Positions 2,144 through 29,065 of a stretch of DNA of 43,617 bases are shown here, in pieces. The notes under the pieces were generated by a model. The model saw nothing but the letters and a program-made list of their open reading frames with translations. It made no database searches and was not told the DNA's origin. Position 1 is the first letter of the stretch, and every line of letters starts with the position of its first letter. The DNA is from Candidatus Collierbacteria bacterium. GTDB taxonomy: Bacteria > Patescibacteriota > Microgenomatia > UBA1400 > MFAQ01. The position numbers and the translations under genes are program-made. The stretch lies in NCBI GenBank assembly GCA_023245265.1, contig JAHFKQ010000001.1, positions 1-43,617 of the forward strand, read 5' to 3'.

Positions 2144-2261
2144 GGAAAAGGGTCGATGCGACAATCCCTTTCCTGTCAGGTAATAAGTAAATTTTAAACT
2201 ACTTAGGATATTACTCCCTGAATAGTGAATAGATTTGCAAAAAGATAGCACGAGTAATATT

Positions 2262-5480
<3,219 letters not shown>

Positions 5481-8626: not shown

Positions 8627-9148
8627 TTACCTCAAATCACCACAGGCCGTACTCACCGCCACTCTTTCGTCTGATTCATGAACATTTACTGCCAAAGGCA
8701 AATCGGCAAATAAATCTGCCATACTCACCGAGATAACCGTCTCTGCTTTTCCGTTGATCACTTTATTTAGTGGATACTTCACCACTCCGGTATTTGGACA
8801 CTTACCGACATGAACATGCGACGGTTGTGGCGACGGATACTTGGTCCCAATCATACTTATAGTCACTTTTGTTTTATCCCCAACCGCCACAAATTCCGCC
8901 ATTCCACTCTGCCCCGATAACCCTGTTTGTTCCAAAACTATCGCCTTAGAAACCAAGGTTGGTGTGGGCGAAACCACGGTGGTAGGTACCACTGCCTCTT
9001 CCACGCTCGGCAACACCACTGCTTTATTATTGCCCATCCAAATCATCCAAAATCCAATCGCCAAAATCAAAAGGATCATGAATGTCCCCGGAGTATTTTT
9101 TGACATTTTTAATAATGATGATAATAAATTAATGATACTCATAGCCAT
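8627..9148 (-). CDS. Membrane-anchored hypothetical protein with a CHRD / Cu,Zn-SOD-like beta-sandwich signature
   Basis: N-terminal TM helix. SHVHVGKCPNTGVV and LAVNVHESDERVAVSTACGDL resemble CHRD/SodC-like motifs. The functional call is weak. Confidence 0.55.
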   Translation of the reverse strand: MAMSIINLLSSLLKMSKNTPGTFMILLILAIGFWMIWMGNNKAVVLPSVEEAVVPTTVVSPTPTLVSKAIVLEQTGLSGQSGMAEFVAVGDKTKVTISMIGTKYPSPQPSHVHVGKCPNTGVVKYPLNKVINGKAETVISVSMADLFADLPLAVNVHESDERVAVSTACGDLR

Positions 9149-9194
9149 GGTTTTGTCAATATTCTTACAAATAACGCTCGTTGTAAAATAACTA

Positions 9195-9812
9195 ATGGAA
9201 ATTATTTGTCTGACGGTCGGAGATTTGGCGACTCACTGCTATCTGGCCATTGATGAAGAAACACGGCAAACCCTCGTTATCGATCCGGGCGACGAAGGCG
9301 ACTTTCTCAGCACCACTATTTTAGAAAATAATCTGGTTCCTCAAGCCATTATTCTCACACATGGGCATTACGATCACTGTCTCGCCGCCCTAGAGCTCAA
9401 ACTCAATTTTTCCCTTCCCATTTATCTCCACCAAAAAGACTTATTTCTTTATGAGAAGGCTCATCTCTCGGCCAAGCATTTCTCACATATCGCTATTCCC
9501 AAGCTCCCTCCCATTGACCATTTTCTAAAAGACCAGGAAATTATCACTTTTGGTAATTCATCTCTCAAAGTTCTACATACTCCCGGCCACACCCCTGGTT
9601 CGGTTTGCCTCTACTCTGCTCGTTCTCTTTTCAGCGGCGATACTCTCTTCGTCAACGGTGTCGGTAGTACTGACCATCAGTACTCCTCCGCCAGCGACCT
9701 GAAAAAATCCTTCGCCAAGATCAAGCCATTTTCTACTAACTCACTAATTTATCCGGGCCACGAAGATTTTGGCCTGCCACTTGTCGCCACACCTCCTCAT
9801 CTCTTTTCTTAA
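9195..9812 (+). CDS. MBL-fold metallo-hydrolase (glyoxalase II-like)
   Basis: ILTHGHYDHCLA (HxHxDH), HTPGHTPGS and GDTLF motifs. Confidence 0.9.
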   Translation: MEIICLTVGDLATHCYLAIDEETRQTLVIDPGDEGDFLSTTILENNLVPQAIILTHGHYDHCLAALELKLNFSLPIYLHQKDLFLYEKAHLSAKHFSHIAIPKLPPIDHFLKDQEIITFGNSSLKVLHTPGHTPGSVCLYSARSLFSGDTLFVNGVGSTDHQYSSASDLKKSFAKIKPFSTNSLIYPGHEDFGLPLVATPPHLFS

Positions 9813-10311
9813 TTTGATCCAGGATAAAGTCTTCGGCCCCATTCGACTCCATCAACTTTTTTGTCGCGAAAAAATTCAAGTCAAACTGCCACGAATACCA
9901 GCACAAAAAAACATCTATCTGAGTTTTCATCTCTTTTTTGGGCACCAGTCGTCCTTCCAAGAATGCCCTTAAGGCGCCTGGGGTTACTTTACCTTCCGGC
10001 AGTTTAAACTCCTGAATATGGTAGTGAAAATACGAAAGCAATCCCAGTTTGTCGGCGTCTCGGATAAATCTTCCATATAGTTCTCCGGCAAAATAATCCA
10101 ATCGGCTATGGTTTTTTACCGCCTCAGCTAAGACCTTGCCGTCTATCCCCAACTGTGCCATTTTTGGCCAAGGATGGGACTGTAATATTTTGGCACCTTC
10201 CTTAGCATGGTCAAAACCGGTTTTGATATCCGAAAAACTCCCAAGCATCGCCTGTGGAAACCGTCCAAAATCATGAGCAAAGGTGACCGCTCCACCCATC
10301 CAAGGTTTCAA
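9736..10311 (-). CDS. HD-domain phosphohydrolase, C-terminal part (carries the HD dyad); TTG start
   Basis: AHDFGRF...HAKEGA...NHS...IRDADKL. It overlaps the upstream ORF by TTGA. Its 3' end overlaps the convergent MBL gene by 77 nt. Confidence 0.6.
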   Translation of the reverse strand: MKPWMGGAVTFAHDFGRFPQAMLGSFSDIKTGFDHAKEGAKILQSHPWPKMAQLGIDGKVLAEAVKNHSRLDYFAGELYGRFIRDADKLGLLSYFHYHIQEFKLPEGKVTPGALRAFLEGRLVPKKEMKTQIDVFLCWYSWQFDLNFFATKKLMESNGAEDFILDQIKKRDEEVWRQVAGQNLRGPDKLVS

Positions 10312-10598
10312 TCTACATCCGTCTGTTGTGCCATAATCTCCAGCCCTGCCACAACCACCTCTCTGGTGTGAAGCACCTTTCTCAATATCATGTGCCTCAC
10401 ATCCCGACTCTGAGCCGCCATAAAATGTTCTTGCATTAAGTTCAGTCCAAACTCCAGCAGTTCATCGGGAATCATAAACTTCTCGGTTCCTTCACCCAAA
10501 AACAGTTCCTTTGTCCAGCGCTTCATAGCATCAACCTCAATATCAGGGTTTGCCAAAACCTCCAAATCGTTGTTATTCCTAATTTTCACAAGCCTCAT
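10308..10598 (-). CDS. HD-domain phosphohydrolase, N-terminal part (carries the first His); split from 9736-10311
   Basis: ...RKVLHTREVVVAGLEIMAQQTDVD*. The His sits 34 aa from the HD dyad of the next ORF if the two are joined by a -1 shift. Confidence 0.55.
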   Translation of the reverse strand: MRLVKIRNNNDLEVLANPDIEVDAMKRWTKELFLGEGTEKFMIPDELLEFGLNLMQEHFMAAQSRDVRHMILRKVLHTREVVVAGLEIMAQQTDVD

Positions 10599-10608
10599 TT
10601 TACCTTAC

Positions 10609-10637
10609 TTGACAATTCTACTATCTTGCCCTATAGT
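10609..10637 (+). promoter_or_regulatory. Sigma70-type promoter
   Basis: TTGACA-N17-TATAGT. Downstream, CTTAC..TTCGT weakly resembles the GACTTACAAAGTTCGTC leader element. Confidence 0.6.
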
Positions 10638-10700
10638 AAACGAATCTTACTTTCGTACGCACCCTAAATCATTCCCTACCAATCCATTTCAAGGAGTCCC

Positions 10701-11354
10701 ATGGACATTAAGCAAATCAATGAGCTTGTGGCAGAAGGTATTCAGTTAACCAGGCTCTGGAACAATCCGGAGTCCACTGGCCGTTACTACCATAACGATG
10801 AACACGCAGAAATGGCACATAACTGCTTCTTCGAGATCGCCGTCAAGGCGAATTTGAATCAGCGCATCAGCTACGATGAGATCCTCCTCGGCCGCCTGGC
10901 TATAGCTTGGCATGATGTCATCCAAGGACAAGGGTCGACTCAAAACGAAACTAAAAGCGCCGACTTACTGGCCAAAGACATGGTCCGCTACGCCTTCTCC
11001 CCCGATCAGATTAACCAAGCCAGAGAGCTTATCCTTGGCACCATTACCAGTTTCGACGAGCAGGGCTATATGCATCAGAGCGCCGAACTAATTGCCACTC
11101 CGCTGGCTTTGCTTGTAGCCGACGCCGATCTCTGCTCACTCGGCGCTCCGGCACCCAAATTCGTCCTCATGTCCCAACGGCTGATTATGGAATTTGCCGG
11201 CAAAACCGATCTGAGCCCTGAAGAATGGCAAAAGGGCTGGGCTGGGCAAGTGAAGTTTATGACAGGCCGAACTTTTCTCACCCCTGAAGCCAACGAGCGC
11301 TGGGGACTGCGCTTAGGCCAAAACTTTGAGCTTGCCAAAACCCTGGCTCGATAA
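10701..11354 (+). CDS. HD-superfamily protein (COG4339-like predicted metal-dependent phosphohydrolase)
   Basis: YYHNDEHAEM...LAIAWHDVIQG...NETKSADLL pattern. SD AAGGAG. Confidence 0.7.
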   Translation: MDIKQINELVAEGIQLTRLWNNPESTGRYYHNDEHAEMAHNCFFEIAVKANLNQRISYDEILLGRLAIAWHDVIQGQGSTQNETKSADLLAKDMVRYAFSPDQINQARELILGTITSFDEQGYMHQSAELIATPLALLVADADLCSLGAPAPKFVLMSQRLIMEFAGKTDLSPEEWQKGWAGQVKFMTGRTFLTPEANERWGLRLGQNFELAKTLAR

Positions 11355-11375
11355 CCCGTCTCTCACTCTAATTTA

Positions 11376-11398
11376 GGCACCCGAAAGGGTGCCTTTTT
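11376..11398 (+). terminator. Rho-independent terminator
   Basis: GGCACCC-GAAA-GGGTGCC-TTTTT. Confidence 0.9.
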
Positions 11399-11418
11399 CG
11401 TGCTATATTAAACTCACT

Positions 11419-12186
11419 ATGACCGAAGAACGACAAGCAATTTTTTCTAAACTTCAAAAACATTCCTGGTTCAAAGCCACCGATCCAAAGCTAATAGACG
11501 AACTATCCAACTTAGCCGAAGATTACAACCCTTTTCTTTCCGATCTCTCCGAAAGACCGGACGAAATTGGCGAGCTCGATGTTCTCAAGCTTGTCAAGAT
11601 AGGCCACGGTCACTACATGATTATGCCCGTTTTTGAGGTCAGATCAAATATCACCAACCAAATTTTTACCTACGAATACTGCAGCTGGAAGACAGGCCGC
11701 AACCCCGGCATGCGTGTCTTAATTTTTCTGGAAAGAGATGGCGAAATTACCCATTTTGTCATTACCAACTCCTACAAATTCTCCGTTGCTCACTCTGCTT
11801 ATGACAGTGTTGGTGGTCTTTATCTTCACATATTTGAAAACAAGATTGTGAACCTCCCCAAAAAAATCGAAAATGAGATCCGTTTCCACCTTGGAGTCGA
11901 GAAAATCGAGTTCAAAAAAGTCACTGATCTTGGCCGATGTCACCCCGATTACGGGATGAGTAACAATCAGTCCGACTTGTTCGCGGCCACCATCGATATT
12001 TCCCATCTTCCCAATCTCGTCGTCAAAGAAGACTTCCGTACTACCCACAAGCCAGTCGGGGTCGAGATTAAAATAGTCCCCATTTCCGAGCTCAGAGACT
12101 ATATTCTGAACCAAATCGAGGATAACTACTTCTTATCCGGCATCTCCCGGGTTCTGGTTCATCCCGATTTTAGTCTCCAGATCTAG
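11419..12186 (+). CDS. Nudix-fold-like protein with a degenerate Nudix box (paralog of 15539-16333)
   Basis: The start was moved to ATG 11419 because the track start lies inside the terminator. It aligns by eye to 15539-16333 over the full length (WFKAT/WFQAT, VLKL, PVFEV/PIFEV, YDSVGGL/YDSIGGL). The region equivalent to REx2EExG reads ENEIRFHLG. Confidence 0.7.
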   Translation: MTEERQAIFSKLQKHSWFKATDPKLIDELSNLAEDYNPFLSDLSERPDEIGELDVLKLVKIGHGHYMIMPVFEVRSNITNQIFTYEYCSWKTGRNPGMRVLIFLERDGEITHFVITNSYKFSVAHSAYDSVGGLYLHIFENKIVNLPKKIENEIRFHLGVEKIEFKKVTDLGRCHPDYGMSNNQSDLFAATIDISHLPNLVVKEDFRTTHKPVGVEIKIVPISELRDYILNQIEDNYFLSGISRVLVHPDFSLQI

Positions 12187-12190
12187 GCTC

Positions 12191-12243
12191 TTGACAGGAA
12201 AAGGAACCTATAGTATCATTATCCCAGACTTAAAAAGTTCGAC
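12191..12243 (+). promoter_or_regulatory. Promoter TTGACA-N17-TATCAT plus conserved leader element GACTTAAAAAGTTCGAC (12227-12243)
   Basis: The element begins exactly 7 nt after the -10 hexamer, as in the copies at 13527 and 16382. Confidence 0.7.
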
Positions 12244-12438
12244 ATTTCAAAGTCAATATCTCGTTCCAAAGGAGCAACCTATGCCTCGTTAATTCGTGCC
12301 TGCAAGCTCAGCTCTACCCCTCACCCCTTGGCCACCTCATCAGATCTGTTTATCATTTTTCAATTCCTAATACCCTTAGAAGACTGAAAATAGTAAGCAT
12401 TCTATCCTCAATTCACGGTCAAACTCAAAGGAGCCATC

Positions 12439-13149
12439 TTGAACAGTCATCTGCCTTTCTTTGGATTAATCTCAAAACAAATATCATCAATTTTTACCGC
12501 CGTTCCTCCGAACCTAAACCGGAGCTGGCAAATCTCCCTTGCCGATGGCGAGGCCGAGATCATCGACGCCTCCGGCGACATCCATTTCGGCAAGCTAAAT
12601 AAGCTTTCCTTGGATCATCTCATCCTGAGTTCTGCTTTTGGCCAGCTGGTCTACGGCTTTTTAAATCAGTCGTGGGATCAATGGGCCTTTTTCGAAGGTA
12701 CCTCAGACCTCGAACCAGCCGGTGTTTGGATAGCCATGTTTACCAGAATTCAGGGGATTCTCCATGTTGGCGTCATCGAAGAGTCACGCCCTCTCATCCA
12801 AGGCCATTTCTTTGCCATTCCTCATGGTTTCGTTGATATGGGTGAGCAGGGGCACGAGGCCGCCATGAGAGAGTTACTGGAAGAAACCGGAGTCAAAGTC
12901 ACCCAAATCTATTCGTTAGGTTACCTAGGTCACAACACCGCTTTTTTTGGTGGTTCAACTTCAGGTGCCCATAGCGACGAAGGTTTCTTGGTCATTCTTG
13001 AAAATGAGCTTCAGACGGTAAAAATCGGCGTCAAAGAATCCACCTTGAAATGGATTCCAACCTCAGAATTTGTTCTTTCCGGCTATTGTGCCCCATCAAC
13101 TGCGGTTGTGGCCAAAGCCCTAGTCAAAGTCACAAAGGAGACTAAATGA
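12439..13149 (+). CDS. Nudix hydrolase (ADP-ribose pyrophosphatase-like)
   Basis: Perfect Nudix box GFVDMGEQGHEAAMRELLEETGV (Gx5Ex7REUxEExGU). TTG start 5 nt after AAAGGAG. Confidence 0.85.
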   Translation: MNSHLPFFGLISKQISSIFTAVPPNLNRSWQISLADGEAEIIDASGDIHFGKLNKLSLDHLILSSAFGQLVYGFLNQSWDQWAFFEGTSDLEPAGVWIAMFTRIQGILHVGVIEESRPLIQGHFFAIPHGFVDMGEQGHEAAMRELLEETGVKVTQIYSLGYLGHNTAFFGGSTSGAHSDEGFLVILENELQTVKIGVKESTLKWIPTSEFVLSGYCAPSTAVVAKALVKVTKETK

Positions 13150-13409
13150 TCATCAATCTCATCCTCGAGCTTTTCGTCCAGAACATTTTTGCCATCGCCG
13201 CTTGTTTGTTCTTTCTAATACTGATCATCGGGTCCACCAGAAACCAAAAACTAAAATCCACAGTCAAATGTAGTAAATGCAAAACACAGTTTACGGTTGA
13301 TCCACAACAGGTTCAAGTGTCCGCCGGTCAGCCATCTGGAATAGGAGATGATGGTCTCTCATACTGGATCGACTGTCCATATTGCCACGAGTCAAACTCA
13401 CCTTATTAA
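13146..13409 (+). CDS. Small membrane protein with a C-terminal zinc ribbon
   Basis: ATGA overlap with the Nudix gene. One TM helix. CSKC...(38 aa)...CPYC cysteine pairs. Confidence 0.65.
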   Translation: MIINLILELFVQNIFAIAACLFFLILIIGSTRNQKLKSTVKCSKCKTQFTVDPQQVQVSAGQPSGIGDDGLSYWIDCPYCHESNSPY

Positions 13410-13432
13410 GTCACTCGCCTAGCCTCCACTTA

Positions 13433-13458
13433 CCCACCTCAACCGAGGTGGGTTTTTT
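13433..13458 (+). terminator. Rho-independent terminator
   Basis: CCCACCTC-AACC-GAGGTGGG-TTTTTT. Confidence 0.9.
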
Positions 13459-13489
13459 GTGCCTTCTCCGCCTAGCCACGAACTCCCTC

Positions 13490-13543
13490 TTGCTTTTTGT
13501 CTAAGTTATAACTTATAATACTCGTTGACTTACAAGGTTCGAC
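13490..13543 (+). promoter_or_regulatory. Promoter TTGCTT-N18-TATAAT plus conserved leader element GACTTACAAGGTTCGAC (13527-13543)
   Basis: The element begins 7 nt after the -10 hexamer. A ~130-nt C/U-rich leader precedes the SD AAGGAGG. Confidence 0.7.
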
Positions 13544-13674
13544 CTTAAAATATTTCCCAGCGCGTGCCTATTTGGGCAGCCATCGAACCTATTTTTACCC
13601 CTTTCCCCTTCTTTCCAACCGTTTACCCGGTTGTTTCGTGTATCCCAATCCCCATACCTTAAGGAGGTATTCCC

Positions 13675-15060
13675 ATGTTTTTTTCAAAAATCCGTTCGTC
13701 TTGGCTCGCCTTATGGGCGGGCTTCCTGCATTTTATGTACCTCGATCGTCCTGCAAAGAATGCCGCCAAACCCAGTTTTTACACTCCCGAGGAGCTTCGC
13801 GAGAAGCTGAAGGACCGTTCATTCCAGCTCGAAGCCATCAACTGGATCGAAATGACGCTCCGCCCACTGGAAAATGACGCCATCTTTTTGGCAGTCGCCC
13901 AAAACCGACCTACCGATGCTCGTAACATTACCACTCGCGACTTCCGTCAAATTCTCGATCTGTTCGCCCCTTTCATTGAAAGTGGCACTCCCGCTCACGA
14001 AAAAGGCCATCACATTTTTGATGCCCTAGGCATAATGTCCCTGATTAGTAACGATCCCTGGATTGCCCGGGCTTACAGAAACGAAATCGATGCGGCAGCG
14101 CTAGCCGGCATGATCCACGATGGTCTGACCGGTGTTCAGCACCGTTACATCGACAACAATTGGGAGCTGGATCACGGAGAAATCTGGGCCCACGAAGTTT
14201 ATCGAATGCTAGAGGGTCTGGTAAGCCAGCCAGTCCGGCTACTTACCGCCTATTTTATCGCCACTCACCCACATCGTACCAAGGATGTCACTCTGGCTAG
14301 CGGATACATTCGTCGACCGTGGAATGTCAAGATCTTCTACTACGAAGATCGTCCTGTCCGCATCGGCGACCGCCTTACCAAATTCACTGATCGCCTTGAA
14401 AACGGTGGCGACTCGGCTTGCCATTTCACCCGGCACGCCCTGGCCAATGTCGATGGCGCCCTTGTTGGCGGTCTTGACCTCAATCATCTGGACGGGACCT
14501 ACAACTTCTCCAACTCTCTCAGTCGACTCTTTGCCCCTTCGTTAGGATCGATTTCCATGCCCTCACTCAAGGATGGTGAACCTGTTCTGAAAGATGGCCA
14601 ACCGGTCATGGAGAATGTGCCCAGCATGATACAACACCTAAAGGGCTATGCCGATTCTGCTGTTGCACGGCCGTATAGTCCCTACAACATGTACGACGAC
14701 TTTTCTCCCAACATGCGTTTTCTGATGGACTGGAAAATCGCCAACAACAAAAAATTGATCGAGTTGGTCCAAAACACTACCGGCACCCCTAACTTCGAGC
14801 TGTTTGTTCAACTCATGCAGATGAAGTCCGGCTATCCAAATAATGATCAAACGCAAAAAACCATCGAGCTAACTCGTGCCTTGTGGGAACGGACCTCTCC
14901 CGAGGATCAGGCACACTGGGCCCAAGCCTTCGAATTTGCCCTCGCCTCCTATTATGAGTGGCTCACCGTCTTGGAGACTCAAATTTCCCAAGCTACCGAC
15001 CCGACAGTCCTGGCCTTCCAGCCCTTAGTGGCCGAATTCATTTCTCAGGTCAAGGGCTAA
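13675..15060 (+). CDS. Large HD-domain-like protein (461 aa), function unknown
   Basis: KGHHIFDALGIMSL...(~30 aa)...LAGMIHDGLTG gives H...HD spacing. Later IATHPH. Strong SD. Confidence 0.65.
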   Translation: MFFSKIRSSWLALWAGFLHFMYLDRPAKNAAKPSFYTPEELREKLKDRSFQLEAINWIEMTLRPLENDAIFLAVAQNRPTDARNITTRDFRQILDLFAPFIESGTPAHEKGHHIFDALGIMSLISNDPWIARAYRNEIDAAALAGMIHDGLTGVQHRYIDNNWELDHGEIWAHEVYRMLEGLVSQPVRLLTAYFIATHPHRTKDVTLASGYIRRPWNVKIFYYEDRPVRIGDRLTKFTDRLENGGDSACHFTRHALANVDGALVGGLDLNHLDGTYNFSNSLSRLFAPSLGSISMPSLKDGEPVLKDGQPVMENVPSMIQHLKGYADSAVARPYSPYNMYDDFSPNMRFLMDWKIANNKKLIELVQNTTGTPNFELFVQLMQMKSGYPNNDQTQKTIELTRALWERTSPEDQAHWAQAFEFALASYYEWLTVLETQISQATDPTVLAFQPLVAEFISQVKG

Positions 15061-15061
15061 A

Positions 15062-15463
15062 ATGGGCTTCAGTGTCGATTACGAACCAAACTTTACCTCG
15101 ATCCAGTACTCGTATATCAAGCCAGATCAAGACATCCGGGTTCTAAACTGGAAAGAGTTCCCTTTCCTGGAGTCGGTCAAAGACACTCAAGCCATCTATT
15201 TTTCGGCTTCCACTGTGGGTGGCAATCATCGCCATCCTCGCACGGAATGGTATCTGGGTTTTGGGGATCTAATCATTTACTGGTTAGATACCACAGGCAA
15301 ACGACATCAGAGGCATTTAAATCCCCAGGGGAGGCTGTTACTAGTGAAGATCCCCCCTTATCTGCCCCACGCTGTCCGAAACCGCTCAGTCACCAATTCA
15401 GCCCTGCTCATTGAGCTGGCCGACGCTCCTCAGCACGATGTCGAGCGCATCAAAGTTTTCTAA
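15062..15463 (+). CDS. Small cupin-fold protein (RmlC/WxcM-like)
   Basis: Starts 1 nt after the upstream stop. GGNHRHPRTEWYLGFGDLIIYWLD...LVKIPPYLPHAVRN resembles sugar epimerase/isomerase cupins. Confidence 0.6.
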   Translation: MGFSVDYEPNFTSIQYSYIKPDQDIRVLNWKEFPFLESVKDTQAIYFSASTVGGNHRHPRTEWYLGFGDLIIYWLDTTGKRHQRHLNPQGRLLLVKIPPYLPHAVRNRSVTNSALLIELADAPQHDVERIKVF

Positions 15464-15470
15464 CTCTCAA

Positions 15471-15495
15471 CCCACCCCTTCGGGGGTGGGTTTTT
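15471..15495 (+). terminator. Rho-independent terminator
   Basis: CCCACCCC-TTCG-GGGGTGGG-TTTTT. Confidence 0.9.
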
Positions 15496-15538
15496 CTTGG
15501 TCTCTTGACATTCTTTTTTTGTTCTATAACATGAACCT

Positions 15539-16333
15539 ATGTCCACCGCATTTAACTTCGAAGCTTTTAGCTACACACTCCCTCCTAACCGTCAGCTTTT
15601 GGCTGCCAAGCTCATCGAGAAAAAATGGTTCCAAGCTACTTCACCCGAACTCCAGCAAGAAGTACTTACCCTCCCGGACGATCACGAAGGCTTTCTCTAC
15701 GATCTGAGCCATCGCCCGGATATAGTCGGTCATCTGACCGTCCTCAAACTTCTCAAAATCGTCCGTGGCGAGTTTTTGGTCACCCCCATTTTCGAGGTTC
15801 ACTCCGCCACCTCAGGTAAAACCTTCACCAAAGAATATGTCTGCTGGAAAATGGGCGCTTTCCCGGGTATCAAGGGTACTTTATTCGTTCGCTTACACGG
15901 CAACATCACTCACTTTATCACCATCCAAACCGACAAATTTCCCGTTGGTGCCCTCTGTTACGACTCCATTGGTGGACTTTTTCAATATGCCAAAGGTACC
16001 AACCTCGATTTACCCAACAAAGTCGAACAGCTCATCAAAGATAAGCTTGGTTTACAAGCACTCAAAATTCAGGAATTTATCGATCTGGGACACATCCAGT
16101 CCGATAACGGCCTGACGCCAAACTACCCCCAAATCTTTGCCGCGATTATCGACGGCGACGAAGCTGGGCACCTCTCAGCCCGCGAGATTGACCCCCAGGA
16201 TCGCGAACAGGCCAATTTCCGGATCCAGGTCGTACCCATCCAGGAGCTCCCCGAATACCTCCTCAGGGTCGACGACGCCTTTTTCCTGGCTACCTGTGCC
16301 CGCCTCTTAGCCAAACGGGTTATCACCCTCTAG
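15539..16333 (+). CDS. Nudix-fold-like protein with a degenerate Nudix box (paralog of 11419-12186)
   Basis: It aligns to 11419-12186 and, by eye, to the Nudix core of 12439-13149 (G..F.R..G.I.H..I). The box position reads VEQLIKDKLGL. It is preceded by TTGACA-N16-TAACAT-N6-ATG with no SD. Confidence 0.7.
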   Translation: MSTAFNFEAFSYTLPPNRQLLAAKLIEKKWFQATSPELQQEVLTLPDDHEGFLYDLSHRPDIVGHLTVLKLLKIVRGEFLVTPIFEVHSATSGKTFTKEYVCWKMGAFPGIKGTLFVRLHGNITHFITIQTDKFPVGALCYDSIGGLFQYAKGTNLDLPNKVEQLIKDKLGLQALKIQEFIDLGHIQSDNGLTPNYPQIFAAIIDGDEAGHLSAREIDPQDREQANFRIQVVPIQELPEYLLRVDDAFFLATCARLLAKRVITL

Positions 16334-16344
16334 GCACAGACCTC

Positions 16345-16398
16345 TTGACATATACTCTAGGCTGAAGCTATAATACCCCCAGACTTACAAAGTTCGTC
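16345..16398 (+). promoter_or_regulatory. Promoter TTGACA-N18-TATAAT plus conserved leader element GACTTACAAAGTTCGTC (16382-16398)
   Basis: The element begins 7 nt after the -10 hexamer. SD AAGGAG precedes ATG 16450. Confidence 0.75.
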
Positions 16399-16449
16399 TT
16401 TTACATCCGCTTTTCTCCGTTCTTCCACCCTATTTCTTAAGGAGTCCCT

Positions 16450-16851
16450 ATGTCAGTTATCAAAAATGTTCGTATTTCGTTTGCCGTCGCCTGGTATTCA
16501 AACCCAACAGTTGGCCAAGGCACTATTGACCTCAAAGAAGGCGAAGGTCACAAGACTAAAGGCTTCGAAATCTCCGCCGACCATCGCTACCTCACCGCCT
16601 GGTCATACGATCTTGAAGAAAAGTACCCCATGCGTTGTAAGGTCGGCCTCAAGCCCGGCTTTTTTACCCAGATTGGAAACTTGCTCAAAGGCAATCCCAT
16701 GTTTCGGACTCGCCCAAAGTATGTTTCCGTCCTCGTAACAACCCGCTTCCCTCTTAGCGCCGTAAAAAATATTTCTTTTAGCAACGACTGGGACGACTCG
16801 TCCTACTCTTTCTACGACGCCGACAAACTTTCCCCAAAGGAGAACAAATGA
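16450..16851 (+). CDS. Hypothetical protein (133 aa)
   Basis: Strong SD. ATGA overlap with the next gene. No recognisable motif. Confidence 0.6.
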   Translation: MSVIKNVRISFAVAWYSNPTVGQGTIDLKEGEGHKTKGFEISADHRYLTAWSYDLEEKYPMRCKVGLKPGFFTQIGNLLKGNPMFRTRPKYVSVLVTTRFPLSAVKNISFSNDWDDSSYSFYDADKLSPKENK

Positions 16852-17267
16852 AAACCTTGTTTTTCCTCGGCCTAGGATCTTGGATCATCCAAATTTTGTC
16901 GACTGGTCTTAGCTTGGCTTCGTTCAATCACATTAAGTCTCAGATCAATGATCCTGCCAGCCTGCCTCTTTGGTATCAGATTCTAGCTTGGGTTATAAAT
17001 TTATCCTCCGTCGGATATTTGATTTGTACCCTCTGGATCTTTTTTACATTTCAGAGTCCTGTGTTTATGATTTCGGTCATTCTGGCTGCAGTGATTATCG
17101 CTATTCGAATGCGACACGGGCAAAAGGTCCCGACCAAAATGAGTAAGGAAGAAATTGCCGACTTTAACTTGGATTTCAAAGGTATCCTCATCGTTTGGTT
17201 GATTACCTTGGAAGTCTCTTTCTACGGCGCAGTCCCCTACTTACTGCTTTTCATATTTACTCTCTAG
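16848..17267 (+). CDS. Hypothetical integral membrane protein (~4 TM)
   Basis: Translationally coupled to 16450-16851. Hydrophobic helices throughout. Confidence 0.6.
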   Translation: MKTLFFLGLGSWIIQILSTGLSLASFNHIKSQINDPASLPLWYQILAWVINLSSVGYLICTLWIFFTFQSPVFMISVILAAVIIAIRMRHGQKVPTKMSKEEIADFNLDFKGILIVWLITLEVSFYGAVPYLLLFIFTL

Positions 17268-19363
17268 TCAAGTTTCTTCCCCGCCTTCACCGGCGGGGTT
17301 TTTATTGGCAAAGTAAATTCAAAGGTTGTTCCCTTGCCCTCTACACTCGAAAAGCGTATTTCTCCCCCGGAGGACTCAATAATCGCTTTAGTGAGATAAA
17401 GTCCCAAGCCGGAACCTTCCGTAAATTTTTTCAGAGCATTGCTAGCACGGAAGAATTTTTGAAACATTCTCTCCTGTTCCTCCATCGGGATACCGATGCC
17501 ATTATCGCTAACTTCGGAAATTATCTTTCCATCTTTGGCGTAAACTTTGACAGTTATCTCGCCTTTCTCCCCAGTGTAGCGGATAGCATTCGAGATGAGG
17601 TTGGCGTACACATGACGGATTAAGTCAGCATCAATATTGATGATGGGTAGTTTTTCACTTACTTGATCAATAAAGACTTTACCTTGACCTTCAGGATTTA
17701 ACTCAAAGTCCCCGATTATCGATTTCACTAAAGTTTTTAAGTCAGTTGATTTTGGCATGACCGCAATCTTTCCGGACTCCATTCTACTCAGGCTCAATAA
17801 CGAGTTAACAATCGTGATTTCTCTTTGGTTGGATTCTTCAATTCGATCAACAAATTCTTTTTGTTTTTTTGACAGTGGACCACCATCACCATTTTTTAAC
17901 ATTTCAGTAAACCACTTCACCGCCGATAGTGGAGTCCGCAATTGGTGGCTGGCCAAGGAAATAAACTCGGTCTTTATTTTTTCAATCGCCCTTTCTTTAC
18001 TTAGATCTCTTTCAATCCCCACAAAGAAAAGCAATTTTTTTTGCTCGTCCAAAATCGGTGAGATATGCATTTCTGCTTCGTAAGACTCTCCATTTTTCCT
18101 CTTATTTGTTACCTCATCTTCAAATGGCATTTTTTCATCCCTAATTGTTCTCCACATTCTTTGATAATATTCTTTAGGCATATTGCCTCCCCACAGGGAA
18201 GGTTTCTTCCCAATAAGTTCGGCTTCCGTGTAACCGGTAATTTTCATGGCGGCCTTATTCACATAAATAATTGTGCCATCTATATTTGTTATCACCACTT
18301 GGTCGGAAACTCCATCCACTGCTTGCTTAAATTTCTTCAAATCTCGTGTCGCAAATTCTACCAAGCTCCCCGCCCTCCTGTCTGCCGAGACAAACGAATA
18401 AATACTCAAAAACCATAATATATTTAGAGAGAGAACCATGACCAAAGTAATTGTTGGTAAATTTTCTTCATAATCTGAAAGTTTATATAGCCTATCCGTA
18501 TCCAAAATAATCTTCATCTTTCGATTTAACAGATTAAAGTCTTTAGAAACTGTATGCATCGGTCTTTCCCCTTGTAGTGATCCGACACTCATTACTTTTT
18601 TGTCCCCATCAATAAGTGAATATCTTATGCCCGGCCTCGTGACAAACTCTTCTTTCAATCTGTCAACATTCAGCCAAACATCTATAAACCCGATCAACAT
18701 TTCATCTCTTTTCTCTATTGGTATTTCTTCAATATTTTCAATCTTAAAAATCGGCATAATTACTCCGTATCCAGTCTTCTTGCTCTGGGGAATGATTTCC
18801 TCTAGCCGACCCAACTCCGACATTACTGGTTGGTTTGTCTTTTCGGCTAAAAGCAAAGCCGCCATGGTATTTTCTGAAGTTTGCAAATCAAATCCCAGCA
18901 AGTCATTAATTTGTGGATCAATAGAGTAAAGGTGTTTAATTGGATAAATTGTAAGACTGTCTGTTTTTGGGAAGACTTGATAATTTTCATAGTCATCAAT
19001 TCCCGAAGACCTCATTTCTAACTCCATTTTTTTTAAGTCTTTACGGGCTATTTTTGGCACATATGCCAGGGAATAGTCTTGATGATTTTGATCACTTACT
19101 AAAGCTTTAAAATGGTCGTTCCAATCCCTTGGGTGATCTTCACTCAAACTGATCAGGCCTTTCAGGTCATAAAGCAGGTCCACCCCCCTATCTATTTTGT
19201 CTACCATAGTCTTCACCACATCATCCAGAGTTTTGGACAGCTCCGCAATCCTTCTGAGCTCCACTGACCGTTGGATATAAATCATTAACATCACCGATCC
19301 CACCATCAATACCAAACTAGTCGTACCAATTAAAAATAACCTCCCCAAGTGTTCAATTTTCAT
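17264..19363 (-). CDS. Sensor histidine kinase: TM, CHASE-like extracytoplasmic domain, TM, PAS, HisKA, HATPase_c
   Basis: H-box FISLASHQLRTPLSAV, N-box ANLISNAIRYT, G-boxes DNGIGIP and GSGLGL. PAS region VVITNIDGTIIYVNKAAMKITGY. A ~270-aa loop lies between the two TM helices. Confidence 0.92.
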   Translation of the reverse strand: MKIEHLGRLFLIGTTSLVLMVGSVMLMIYIQRSVELRRIAELSKTLDDVVKTMVDKIDRGVDLLYDLKGLISLSEDHPRDWNDHFKALVSDQNHQDYSLAYVPKIARKDLKKMELEMRSSGIDDYENYQVFPKTDSLTIYPIKHLYSIDPQINDLLGFDLQTSENTMAALLLAEKTNQPVMSELGRLEEIIPQSKKTGYGVIMPIFKIENIEEIPIEKRDEMLIGFIDVWLNVDRLKEEFVTRPGIRYSLIDGDKKVMSVGSLQGERPMHTVSKDFNLLNRKMKIILDTDRLYKLSDYEENLPTITLVMVLSLNILWFLSIYSFVSADRRAGSLVEFATRDLKKFKQAVDGVSDQVVITNIDGTIIYVNKAAMKITGYTEAELIGKKPSLWGGNMPKEYYQRMWRTIRDEKMPFEDEVTNKRKNGESYEAEMHISPILDEQKKLLFFVGIERDLSKERAIEKIKTEFISLASHQLRTPLSAVKWFTEMLKNGDGGPLSKKQKEFVDRIEESNQREITIVNSLLSLSRMESGKIAVMPKSTDLKTLVKSIIGDFELNPEGQGKVFIDQVSEKLPIINIDADLIRHVYANLISNAIRYTGEKGEITVKVYAKDGKIISEVSDNGIGIPMEEQERMFQKFFRASNALKKFTEGSGLGLYLTKAIIESSGGEIRFSSVEGKGTTFEFTLPIKTPPVKAGKKLD
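17279..17303 (+). terminator. Rho-independent terminator embedded in the 3' coding end of the convergent kinase gene
   Basis: CCCCGCC-TTCAC(C)-GGCGGGG-TTTTT. The same bases encode ...KTPPVKAGKK on the minus strand. Confidence 0.8.
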
Positions 19364-19364
19364 G

Positions 19365-19742
19365 TCAGCTACTCAGTTTATCTTTGGGACACATTTTTTT
19401 CAGTTCCTCATCTATGTTCGAAAGACCCACATCAGTTTTCATAAAGCATTTAGTCGCACCCATTTGAAGGACTCTTTCCATAGCATCAGGTAAATTAGTA
19501 ATTACAAGAATTGGGATGTTAGTCGTTTTTTGATTCTTTTTTAATTCTTTCAAAACATCCAAACCGTTTAACCTTCCCGGCATATAAATATCTAGCAAAA
19601 TCAGGTCCGGCTCAAAAGTATCAGCTTCTTTTACCCCCATCTCACCATCTGTCGCAATTCTTACATCATACTTCTCTTCAAATTTTCTTCGATATGCTTC
19701 ATTTAGTAACAAATCATCCTCAATGATGAGTAATTTTGCCAT
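19365..19742 (-). CDS. Single-domain response regulator (CheY-like receiver)
   Basis: LIIEDD...DLILLDIYMPG...ILVITN...K motifs. 1 nt upstream of the kinase gene. Confidence 0.9.
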   Translation of the reverse strand: MAKLLIIEDDLLLNEAYRRKFEEKYDVRIATDGEMGVKEADTFEPDLILLDIYMPGRLNGLDVLKELKKNQKTTNIPILVITNLPDAMERVLQMGATKCFMKTDVGLSNIDEELKKMCPKDKLSS

Positions 19743-27554: not shown

Positions 27555-29047
<1,493 letters not shown>

Positions 29048-29065
29048 AAAAATTGAATAGATTAC

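Follow-up and report, generated by a model that had tools for sequence, protein, structure and literature searches.

Nudix domains that have lost their catalytic signature are known from several regulatory settings. The regulator NrtR has an ADP-ribose pyrophosphatase (ADPRase)-like Nudix domain with a perturbed signature, a C-terminal winged helix-turn-helix (wHTH), a 21-bp palindromic operator of the form GT-N7-AC and ADP-ribose as its effector (PMC2330246). Dead Nudix domains act as ADP-ribose sensors in NrtR (PMC2330246) and in the NUDT9-H domain of TRPM2 (PMC6461439), and the dead Nudix protein CFIm25 (NUDT21) binds RNA at UGUA (PMC3695940, PMC10476966). Here we analyse a gene island in a 43,617-nt stretch of a Candidatus Collierbacteria bacterium (contig JAHFKQ010000001.1, positions 1 to 43,617; the window in what follows), in which two pseudo-Nudix genes, NL-A and NL-B, stand beside promoters that share a 24-nt element, P*. 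The island is organised in short operons that each have a near-consensus sigma-70 promoter, with P* as the initial transcribed region. The sole constant gene of the island codes for the degenerate ADPRase-like Nudix protein NL-A, usually accompanied by the paralog NL-B; this gene is expressed from its own leaderless transcript and lies directly upstream of a P* promoter.

The comparison with NrtR is instructive on both sides. The NL proteins too have an ADPRase-like Nudix domain with a degenerate signature and adjoin the genes that they would control, and the ligand-sensor logic that we propose, with an ADP-ribose effector, would be equal. In contrast to NrtR, they lack a C-terminal wHTH and carry instead an acidic N-terminal helical domain of 60 residues; P* is 24 nt long, mostly non-palindromic, has a GT-N3-AC centre and sits at the transcription start; and the island cargo does not belong to NAD metabolism, with no similarity detected via Pfam or NCBIfam. 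The NrtR precedent fits the logic proposed for NL and not its architecture. TRPM2 NUDT9-H and CFIm25/NUDT21 show that Nudix folds can persist without the catalytic box, but both are eukaryotic and of unrelated architecture, and no specific similarity to NL was detected. Closer in fold are the ADP-ribose and nucleoside diphosphate (NDP)-sugar pyrophosphatases (E. coli NudF, NudE and YffH, human NUDT5, Bdellovibrio Bd3179), to which the NL model has its best structural matches and Nudix236, a third Nudix-fold protein of the island, its best sequence matches. Compared with these enzymes, NL-A and NL-B lack the REUxEE glutamates and have a box insertion and an extra N-terminal domain, whereas Nudix236 keeps the box and has a 110-residue extension. 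Finally, the cargo protein p461 shares the H..HD..H..H..D set of the HD phosphohydrolases and class I phosphodiesterases (PF01966, PDE4D), and four of ten sampled remote relatives reach the Pfam threshold; it differs from these enzymes in its distinct 461-aa architecture, which has no significant match in Pfam, PDB or BFVD.

P* has the consensus GACTTAmAARGTnnnnCYTTAAAA, or nGACTTAmAARGTyvkwCYTTwAmAT in its extended form, with A2, C3, T5, G11, T12, T19 and T20 invariant. Three copies of its 17-nt core (GACTTAnAAnGTTCGnC) lie in the window, against an expectation of 0.15, and all are inside the island. They start 7 nt past the -10 hexamer, at 12227 (ahead of Nudix236-Zn87), 13527 (p461-cupin) and 16382 (u133-TM139). 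The shared leader element of the earlier note is therefore real and far beyond chance, with three copies rather than the two it had described, the extra one preceding p461. The same arrangement recurs in related loci, here designated by L numbers. A scan with a position weight matrix found 28 instances in 13 of them, all on the plus (island) strand, 7-8 nt past a -10 box and behind near-consensus -35 and -10 boxes; overall there are one to four copies per locus in about 20 related loci, always within this island. When the strict form was sought in 185,579 GTDB species genomes, 61 matches were obtained. Thirteen have the promoter context, and all 13 lie in islands of this type; the other 48 have no -35/-10 boxes at that spacing and come from unrelated taxa, except for one Patescibacteria and one Saccharibacteria metagenome-assembled genome (MAG). 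Between the -35 box, the -10 box and P* the sequence is not conserved among copies. The 24 nt and their spacing, by contrast, are kept, which points to selection on P* itself. The distance from P* to the ribosome-binding site (RBS) varies from about 35 to 212 nt, and the element holds two direct GACyUU repeats 14 nt apart.

The NL genes are tied to this element by position. Downstream sequence is available for 25 NL genes, and in 23 of these cases P* follows within 40-210 nt. What stands behind P* differs: after NL-A it is Nudix236, p461, a 108-aa open reading frame (ORF), a transmembrane protein, a u133-like gene or a 312-aa ORF, and after NL-B it is u133, a gene of the F2 family, a 151-aa ORF or a 192-aa ORF. 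The true start of NL-A is ATG 11419, with an extended -10 (TGCTATATT) 10 nt ahead of it; GTG 11389 falls within a terminator. NL-A and NL-B are 38% identical (E 4e-61). Their boxes read ..IENEIRFHLGV and ..VEQLIKDKLGL where the canonical sequence is REUxEExGU, and the NL box also carries an insertion. In 19 of 20 aligned NL sequences, three to four of the four REUxEE Arg/Glu residues are lost, both glutamates of the EE pair included; the sole sequence keeping RExxEE is the divergent P0041. Because they lack the catalytic box GX5EX7REUXEEXGU, we consider the NL proteins to be members of the Nudix fold that are not predicted to be hydrolases. An AlphaFold2 model of NL-B (predicted local distance difference test, pLDDT, 73) matches ADPRase, NUDT5, YffH and NudE with E values of 4e-6 to 1e-4 and a probability of 1.00, and the top 50 fold matches are all ADPRase-type enzymes. 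In this model the last Nudix strand is followed by only two helices (residues 234-258). The PDB sequence search with NL-B returned nothing, and hhalign of the NL profile against Nudix236 aligned the Nudix helices correctly, yet not significantly. The family counts 17 members among 5.8e9 proteins and eight loci in GTDB, all of this lineage.

Nudix236 is the island's canonical Nudix protein. It carries a perfect GX5EX7REUXEEXGU box (GFVDMGEQGHEAAMRELLEETGV) and, besides its Pfam match, finds NUDT5/ADP-sugar pyrophosphatase as its best PDB sequence matches (E 1.3e-4); its N-terminal extension spans 110 residues. The earlier note had distinguished one gene with a perfect Nudix box from two paralogs with degenerate boxes, and its three Nudix-fold calls are now backed by the Pfam match of Nudix236, the fold match of NL-B and the homology of NL-A to NL-B. 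Since all three proteins are of the ADP-ribose/ADP-sugar pyrophosphatase type, an ADP-ribose/NDP-sugar theme seems plausible for the island. The 212-nt leader of Nudix236 also contains, within 12267-12292 (plus strand), a three-codon mini-ORF, ATG CCT CGT TAA (12281-12292), with its own strong Shine-Dalgarno sequence.

The island occupies a fixed chromosomal site in about 20 loci, with an MBL-fold gene on one side and, on the other, a conserved gene of 671-709 aa (p671 in its 671-aa form) followed by Dus. Homologs of its proteins come almost solely from Collierbacteria-type MAGs. The conserved core runs from MBL to NL-A to p461. NL-A is always present and p461 nearly always; an intact minus-strand HD gene, the cupin gene and NL-B are each found in some loci, and HD217, Nudix236, Zn87, u133 and TM139 are accessory cassettes, present in some loci and missing from others. 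The linkage that the earlier note asked to have compared across genomes is thus kept for the core, but not for these five genes. Other gene orders occur as well: in L006, NL-A is directly followed by NL-B, and L001 has NL-A, P* and p461. L092, in the complete Collierbacteria genome MFAS01000001 (3001-6066), has an NL-A gene that is 84% identical, then P*, a homolog of Zn87 (78% identical), another copy of P* and a gene resembling p461 (33%); Nudix236 is absent from this otherwise syntenic locus and is therefore dispensable even in its own operon. The orphan F2 family, of about 202 aa, is the commonest P*-driven cassette after NL-B in the relatives and is absent from the window (Table 1). The u133-like genes are usually paired with a gene of the F9 family (L006, L008, L085).

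Even close strains differ in the cargo behind P*, which recombination exchanges. The closest relative, L085, has about 90% nucleotide identity to the window in the flanks, and two segments have no DNA similarity to it. The first (window 13747-15467; L085 6621-7916) runs from codon 25 of p461 through the cupin gene: L085 keeps the first 24 codons, continues into a p461 allele of 431 aa in total that is 31% identical and has HE for HD, and has no cupin. In the second (window 16848-17274; L085 9309-9878), TM139 is replaced by an unrelated 189-aa protein of the F9 family. The breakpoints of the swaps lie in the p461 leader/N-terminal helix (codon 24) and at terminators. The island is richer than the earlier note had it: there are three P* operons, and the regulon extends across the family, with turnover of its cassettes.

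Table 1. Features of the island in the window and F2 genes of related loci
Feature	Coordinates	Strand	Remarks
HD-domain gene, inactivated	9736..10598	-	96-aa and 191-aa ORFs in different frames
HD217, small HD-type phosphohydrolase	10701..11354	+	PHROG matches; own promoter 10609-10637 from promoter scan
Intrinsic terminator after HD217	11375..11394	+	terminator scan; visible in sequence
NL-A, pseudo-Nudix	11419..12186	+	ADP-ribose-pyrophosphatase-like fold, degenerate box, near-leaderless transcript
P* promoter 1	12191..12250	+	TTGACA-17-TATCAT; element 12227-12250
Nudix236, canonical Nudix hydrolase, ADP-sugar pyrophosphatase type	12439..13149	+	Pfam NUDIX (PF00293), E 6e-11
Zn87, membrane-anchored zinc-ribbon protein	13146..13409	+	4-nt overlap with Nudix236
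Intrinsic terminator after Zn87	13432..13453	+	terminator scan
P* promoter 2 and 148-nt p461 leader	13490..13674	+	TTGCTT-18-TATAAT; element 13527-13550
p461, divergent HD-superfamily protein	13675..15060	+	probable dinuclear metal site; N-terminal hydrophobic helix
cupin133, small probable cupin	15062..15463	+	HxH..E..H metal-binding motif
Intrinsic terminator after cupin133	15469..15492	+	terminator scan; recombination breakpoint relative to closest relative
NL-B and promoter	15505..16333	+	TTGACA-16-TAACAT; leaderless ATG 15539
P* promoter 3	16345..16405	+	TTGACA-18-TATAAT; element 16382-16405
u133, orphan soluble protein	16450..16851	+	homologs in L008, L017, L085
TM139, multi-pass membrane protein, strain-specific cassette	16848..17267	+	3-4 hydrophobic segments
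Closing terminator of the island	17279..17298	+	terminator scan; shared with convergent histidine kinase gene
F2 gene, L004	10886-11491		
F2 gene, L005	12369-12977		
F2 gene, L006	5370-6014		
F2 gene, L007	3622-4230		
F2 gene, L023	10362-10970		

Nearly always present in the island, p461 has no match of its own in Pfam, NCBIfam or PDB sequence searches, and its profile found nothing in PDB either. The family has 25 close members, and a profile search of 1.84e9 representatives added 180 remote relatives. Of ten relatives sampled from these, eight match Pfam HD with 17-26 bits, four of them above the cutoff of 22; because of these matches, transitive homology places p461 in the HD superfamily. 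The candidate metal ligands H108/H112, H148-D149, H167, H198 and D239 are invariant in an alignment of 22 sequences. The AlphaFold2 model is confident (pLDDT 86.8; predicted TM-score 0.86) and shows a protein of 461 aa with beta-hairpin insertions and a long helical C-terminal half. Foldseek searches of this model against PDB and BFVD returned nothing significant (best PDB E 0.07); the only fold matches with a noticeable probability (0.3-0.5), none of them significant, are PDE4D (TM-score 0.37-0.44) and HD hydrolases of jumbo phages.

P* and the leader behind it are kept upstream of p461 in all orthologous loci. In the folded leader of the window, 13535-13542 pair with 13583-13590 in a long-range stem, and there is an inner hairpin as well as a terminator-like one (13616-13633). 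A terminator-like hairpin about 85-105 nt past P* is found upstream of p461 in all lineages; its stem comes in three different sequences, with a U-rich tract after each. The long-range stem is more restricted: in one clade positions 9-16 of P* pair with the downstream TCGAACCT, another complementary pair (AACTAG/CTAGTT) takes its place in L010, and the stem is not present in L017 and L018. A universal P1 stem as in riboswitches was rejected on this distribution. Rfam 15, searched over 9000-17500 with gathering and permissive thresholds (E up to 5), gave no match to P* or the leader, the sole result being an unrelated one of 17.6 bits at the last terminator.

The second gene of the p461 operon, cupin133, is present in only some related loci. 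The earlier note had called it a small cupin, and the two-motif metal site (HxH..E and ..H..N), invariant in four orthologs, speaks for this assignment; the matches to Cupin_2 (PF07883), found in all four, stay below threshold, with a best E value of 7.7e-4, and a PDB sequence search with the cupin profile found no match. The two remaining HD-type genes lie upstream of NL-A. HD217 matches two PHROG families annotated as phosphohydrolase (E 1.6e-10 and 1e-6), has no Pfam match and retrieved nothing from a PDB sequence search; of the COG4339-like label given to it in the earlier note, only a generic phosphohydrolase assignment is supported. Only three homologs were found among 5.8e9 proteins. 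The one in L033 is 51% identical and stands behind a P* promoter. In the window, the HD217 promoter is followed by ATCTTAC..TTCGTAC (10609-10700, plus strand), faintly P*-like with a score below threshold, and given the full P* in L033 this promoter may be a decayed P* promoter. The split HD gene lost one G from a TGG codon near 10309, as seen by alignment to intact orthologs, yielding TGA and a frameshift. Those orthologs have 282-286 aa, and the copy of the closest relative, of 284 aa, is intact; they match nearly the full Pfam HD domain with E 1e-3 and 19.0-19.8 bits, where the cutoff is 22. Stop-codon recoding was rejected, considering that the two parts lie in different frames and that the closest relative is intact. 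By inspection, an H..HD..D pattern is present in both HD217 and the split HD gene. The three HD calls made before are hence backed at the superfamily level, by PHROG, by transitive homology to Pfam HD and by near-threshold intact orthologs.

The other cargo is less familiar. Zn87 has one transmembrane segment (residues 1-19) and two CxxC pairs, in agreement with its description as a transmembrane/zinc-ribbon protein, and its zinc-ribbon matches are sub-threshold. The 133-aa protein listed as unknown, u133, is unmatched in Pfam, NCBIfam, PADLOC and PHROGs. TM139 is a multi-pass protein as predicted, although its four transmembrane segments are better given as three to four hydrophobic ones. All ORFs listed in the earlier note are present where it had placed them, its terminators and promoters were likewise located, and the NL genes are leaderless or nearly so. 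When all ORFs were searched against Pfam, NCBIfam, PADLOC and PHROGs, the only useful results were Nudix236, the PHROG phosphohydrolase match of HD217 and the weak zinc-ribbon matches. The genes do not fall into housekeeping families, and neither Pfam nor NCBIfam has a model for most of them; the island could be assigned to no known pathway, defence system or RNA family, in line with the earlier view that no canonical pathway combines these parts. The cassette proteins of related loci are no different: a Pfam scan of 20 sequences, two of which are HD orthologs, left 18, and 17 of these, TM139 of the window included, had no match or only weak ones well below threshold.

We propose that these genes form a regulon confined to this island and this lineage, which comprises nucleotide-directed hydrolases and membrane proteins and is run via pseudo-Nudix sensors of the ADP-ribose type; reasoning from sequence, we give this reading a probability of about 0.4. 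The NL proteins would have lost hydrolysis and would bind or sense a nucleotide of the ADP-ribose or NDP-sugar type. Directly or via a partner, they would set the output of the P* promoters or of their 5' leaders, and they could reach P* by binding DNA, by binding RNA as CFIm25 does, or through that partner. Three pairs of partners would be induced here: an active Nudix enzyme of the ADP-sugar pyrophosphatase type and a membrane zinc-ribbon protein, a novel HD metallo-phosphoesterase and a cupin, and an orphan protein and a membrane protein. Acting jointly at or near the membrane, these might process or remove nucleotides of that class. For p461, the leader with its conserved attenuator hairpin may add a second layer of control.

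Several observations weigh against this proposal. No DNA-binding domain is detectable in NL, which has no C-terminal wHTH and no Pfam or NCBIfam match, and the extra N-terminal helical domain is net acidic in nearly all orthologs; the idea of NL as a classical repressor that binds DNA through this domain is weakened accordingly. The NL-B model is of moderate quality and its matches have TM-scores of only 0.35-0.48. The dyad AARG-N5-CYTT within P* is not significant among 24 non-redundant copies, being equalled in 61 of 500 shuffles, so that P* is best regarded as a linear element situated at the transcription start. A hairpin in RNA or a palindrome in DNA was rejected, as the G:C to A:T covariation at positions 10/18 loses significance without the redundant p461 copies. 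Moreover, no P* lies near a more distant NL homolog, in L091, the cargo of related loci consists mostly of orphan genes without a link to nucleotides, and the adjacency of NL and P* may reflect two ancestral junctions kept by synteny, or recombination at P*.

A doubtful alternative is that the genes have no common function, P* being a lineage-specific strong promoter/leader module that spread with or ahead of unrelated accessory genes and NL ordinary enzymes with an altered motif. The cargo families are indeed mutually unrelated, synteny can account for the adjacency, RExxEE is retained in one NL member, and some Nudix enzymes function with non-canonical boxes. What argues against it is the apparent selection on P* itself, the confinement of P* to this island in every genome sampled, and the loss of catalytic residues in all but one of the aligned NL sequences. 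The repeated layout had earlier been attributed to tandem duplication of one module (HD gene, terminator, degenerate Nudix, promoter, two-gene operon). The order does repeat twice, NL-A and NL-B are paralogs and the promoter element is shared, but homology ends there: hhalign detects no paralogy of p461 with HD217 or with the intact HD protein, and Nudix236/u133 and Zn87/TM139 do not cluster in an all-against-all BLAST. Both NL lineages are already present among the related loci while the other genes vary, so that the duplication is an old one, older than the divergence of the related genomes, and of NL alone; relatives also show other orders (L006, L001). These findings contradict a duplicated module, which we regard as very improbable.

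Unlikely, in our view, is that the island is a diversity hotspot of conflict/defence or host-interaction genes that act on nucleotide second messengers or on NAD/ADP-ribose derivatives, with membrane effectors, and are silenced by a P* repressor until attack; nucleotide-centred conflict systems have been reviewed elsewhere (PMC9503650). Conserved flanks around hypervariable, mostly orphan cargo would fit this explanation, as would the 31%-identical allele that replaces p461 between strains of about 90% identity, the swap of TM139 for a non-homologous gene, and strong consensus promoters with a start-site element, which suggest tight off/on control. HD, Nudix and small membrane proteins also recur in nucleotide-centred conflict systems. 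On the other hand, PADLOC-DB gave no significant defence match (a weak Nudix-box match of E 0.005 and another of E 0.12), Pfam and PHROG scans of the island turned up no gene of the nuclease, ATPase, TIR, cyclase, integrase or phage kinds, and the site is chromosomal and vertically conserved, with no mobility genes. Besides, genomes of the Candidate Phyla Radiation (CPR) often have orphan-rich variable regions. Alternatively, P* might act as RNA, as a conserved 5' end of mRNA bound sequence-specifically by NL homodimers or an NL-A/NL-B heterodimer that would tune stability, attenuation or translation according to a nucleotide ligand. P* is locked to the transcription start in 28/28 instances but variably distant from the RBS; its conservation is asymmetric, linear and not palindromic; its direct repeats, the pairing of positions 9-16 in one clade, the alternative pair of L010, the acidic, helix-turn-helix-free NL proteins and the CFIm25 precedent point the same way. 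Against this, there is no stable conserved RNA structure inside the 24 nt, the long-range stem is missing in two loci, an acidic protein suits RNA no better than DNA, and NL resembles CFIm25 only in its Nudix fold, its fold matches being ADPRase-type. All in all we find a role of P* as RNA improbable. By analogy one could go further and see in NL-A and NL-B a new bacterial class of pseudo-Nudix regulators that read an ADP-ribose-type nucleotide, bind the 5' P* of a private set of mRNAs and couple the signal to transcript fate; this is a long shot.

The surroundings of the island deserve mention. A CHASE-PAS histidine kinase and a stand-alone receiver (17264-19742, minus strand) abut it; they adjoin the island also in L001, L045, L052, L085 and L092 and are absent there in most other loci. 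A functional link to the island is possible, not supported, and we rejected the pair as its regulator, considering that it is adjacent in some loci only and that the receiver has no output domain. The 23S rRNA match (2260-5480, minus strand) spans 3221 nt against a model of 2925 nt, which indicates an insertion of roughly 300 nt, and the 16S rRNA gene (27555-29050, minus strand) lies 22 kb from it, so the rRNA genes are unlinked. Throughout the window one strand has an excess of C over G, with a negative GC skew in all 1-kb bins (-0.06 to -0.36) whatever the gene orientation. A C-over-G disparity between strands along the whole chromosome has been reported for Collierbacteria, Beckwithbacteria and Ch65 (PMC7143001), and the window agrees with it. 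Among GTDB representative MAGs, L029, L033, L037, L045 and L052, L010, and L007, L043 and L091 carry the island under the labels 'uncultured Pseudomonadales', 'Spirochaetia' or 'Woesebacteria'. L010, L037, L043, L045 and L052 have Collierbacteria-type flanking synteny as well (histidine kinase, p671, Dus or MBL), and the taxonomic labels of these MAGs look unreliable.

CPR bacteria have tiny genomes with very few recognisable regulators and many genes to which no function is assigned. This locus offers three testable handles on them, namely a compact regulon defined by P*, a lineage-specific family of dead Nudix proteins that is the sole constant partner of P*, and p461, a confidently modelled HD-type protein without a structural relative. 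If the NL proteins are nucleotide sensors that act on P*, they would represent a second, independent invention of Nudix-based gene control besides NrtR. Should they bind the P* ends of mRNAs, prokaryotes would have their own analogue of RNA recognition by a dead Nudix fold as in CFIm25, alongside a structurally novel HD family. If instead the cargo is related to defence or host interaction, it would contain new effector families. Control of P* by NL, if true, would provide a rare entry into the regulation and the strain-level gene turnover of uncultured CPR bacteria.

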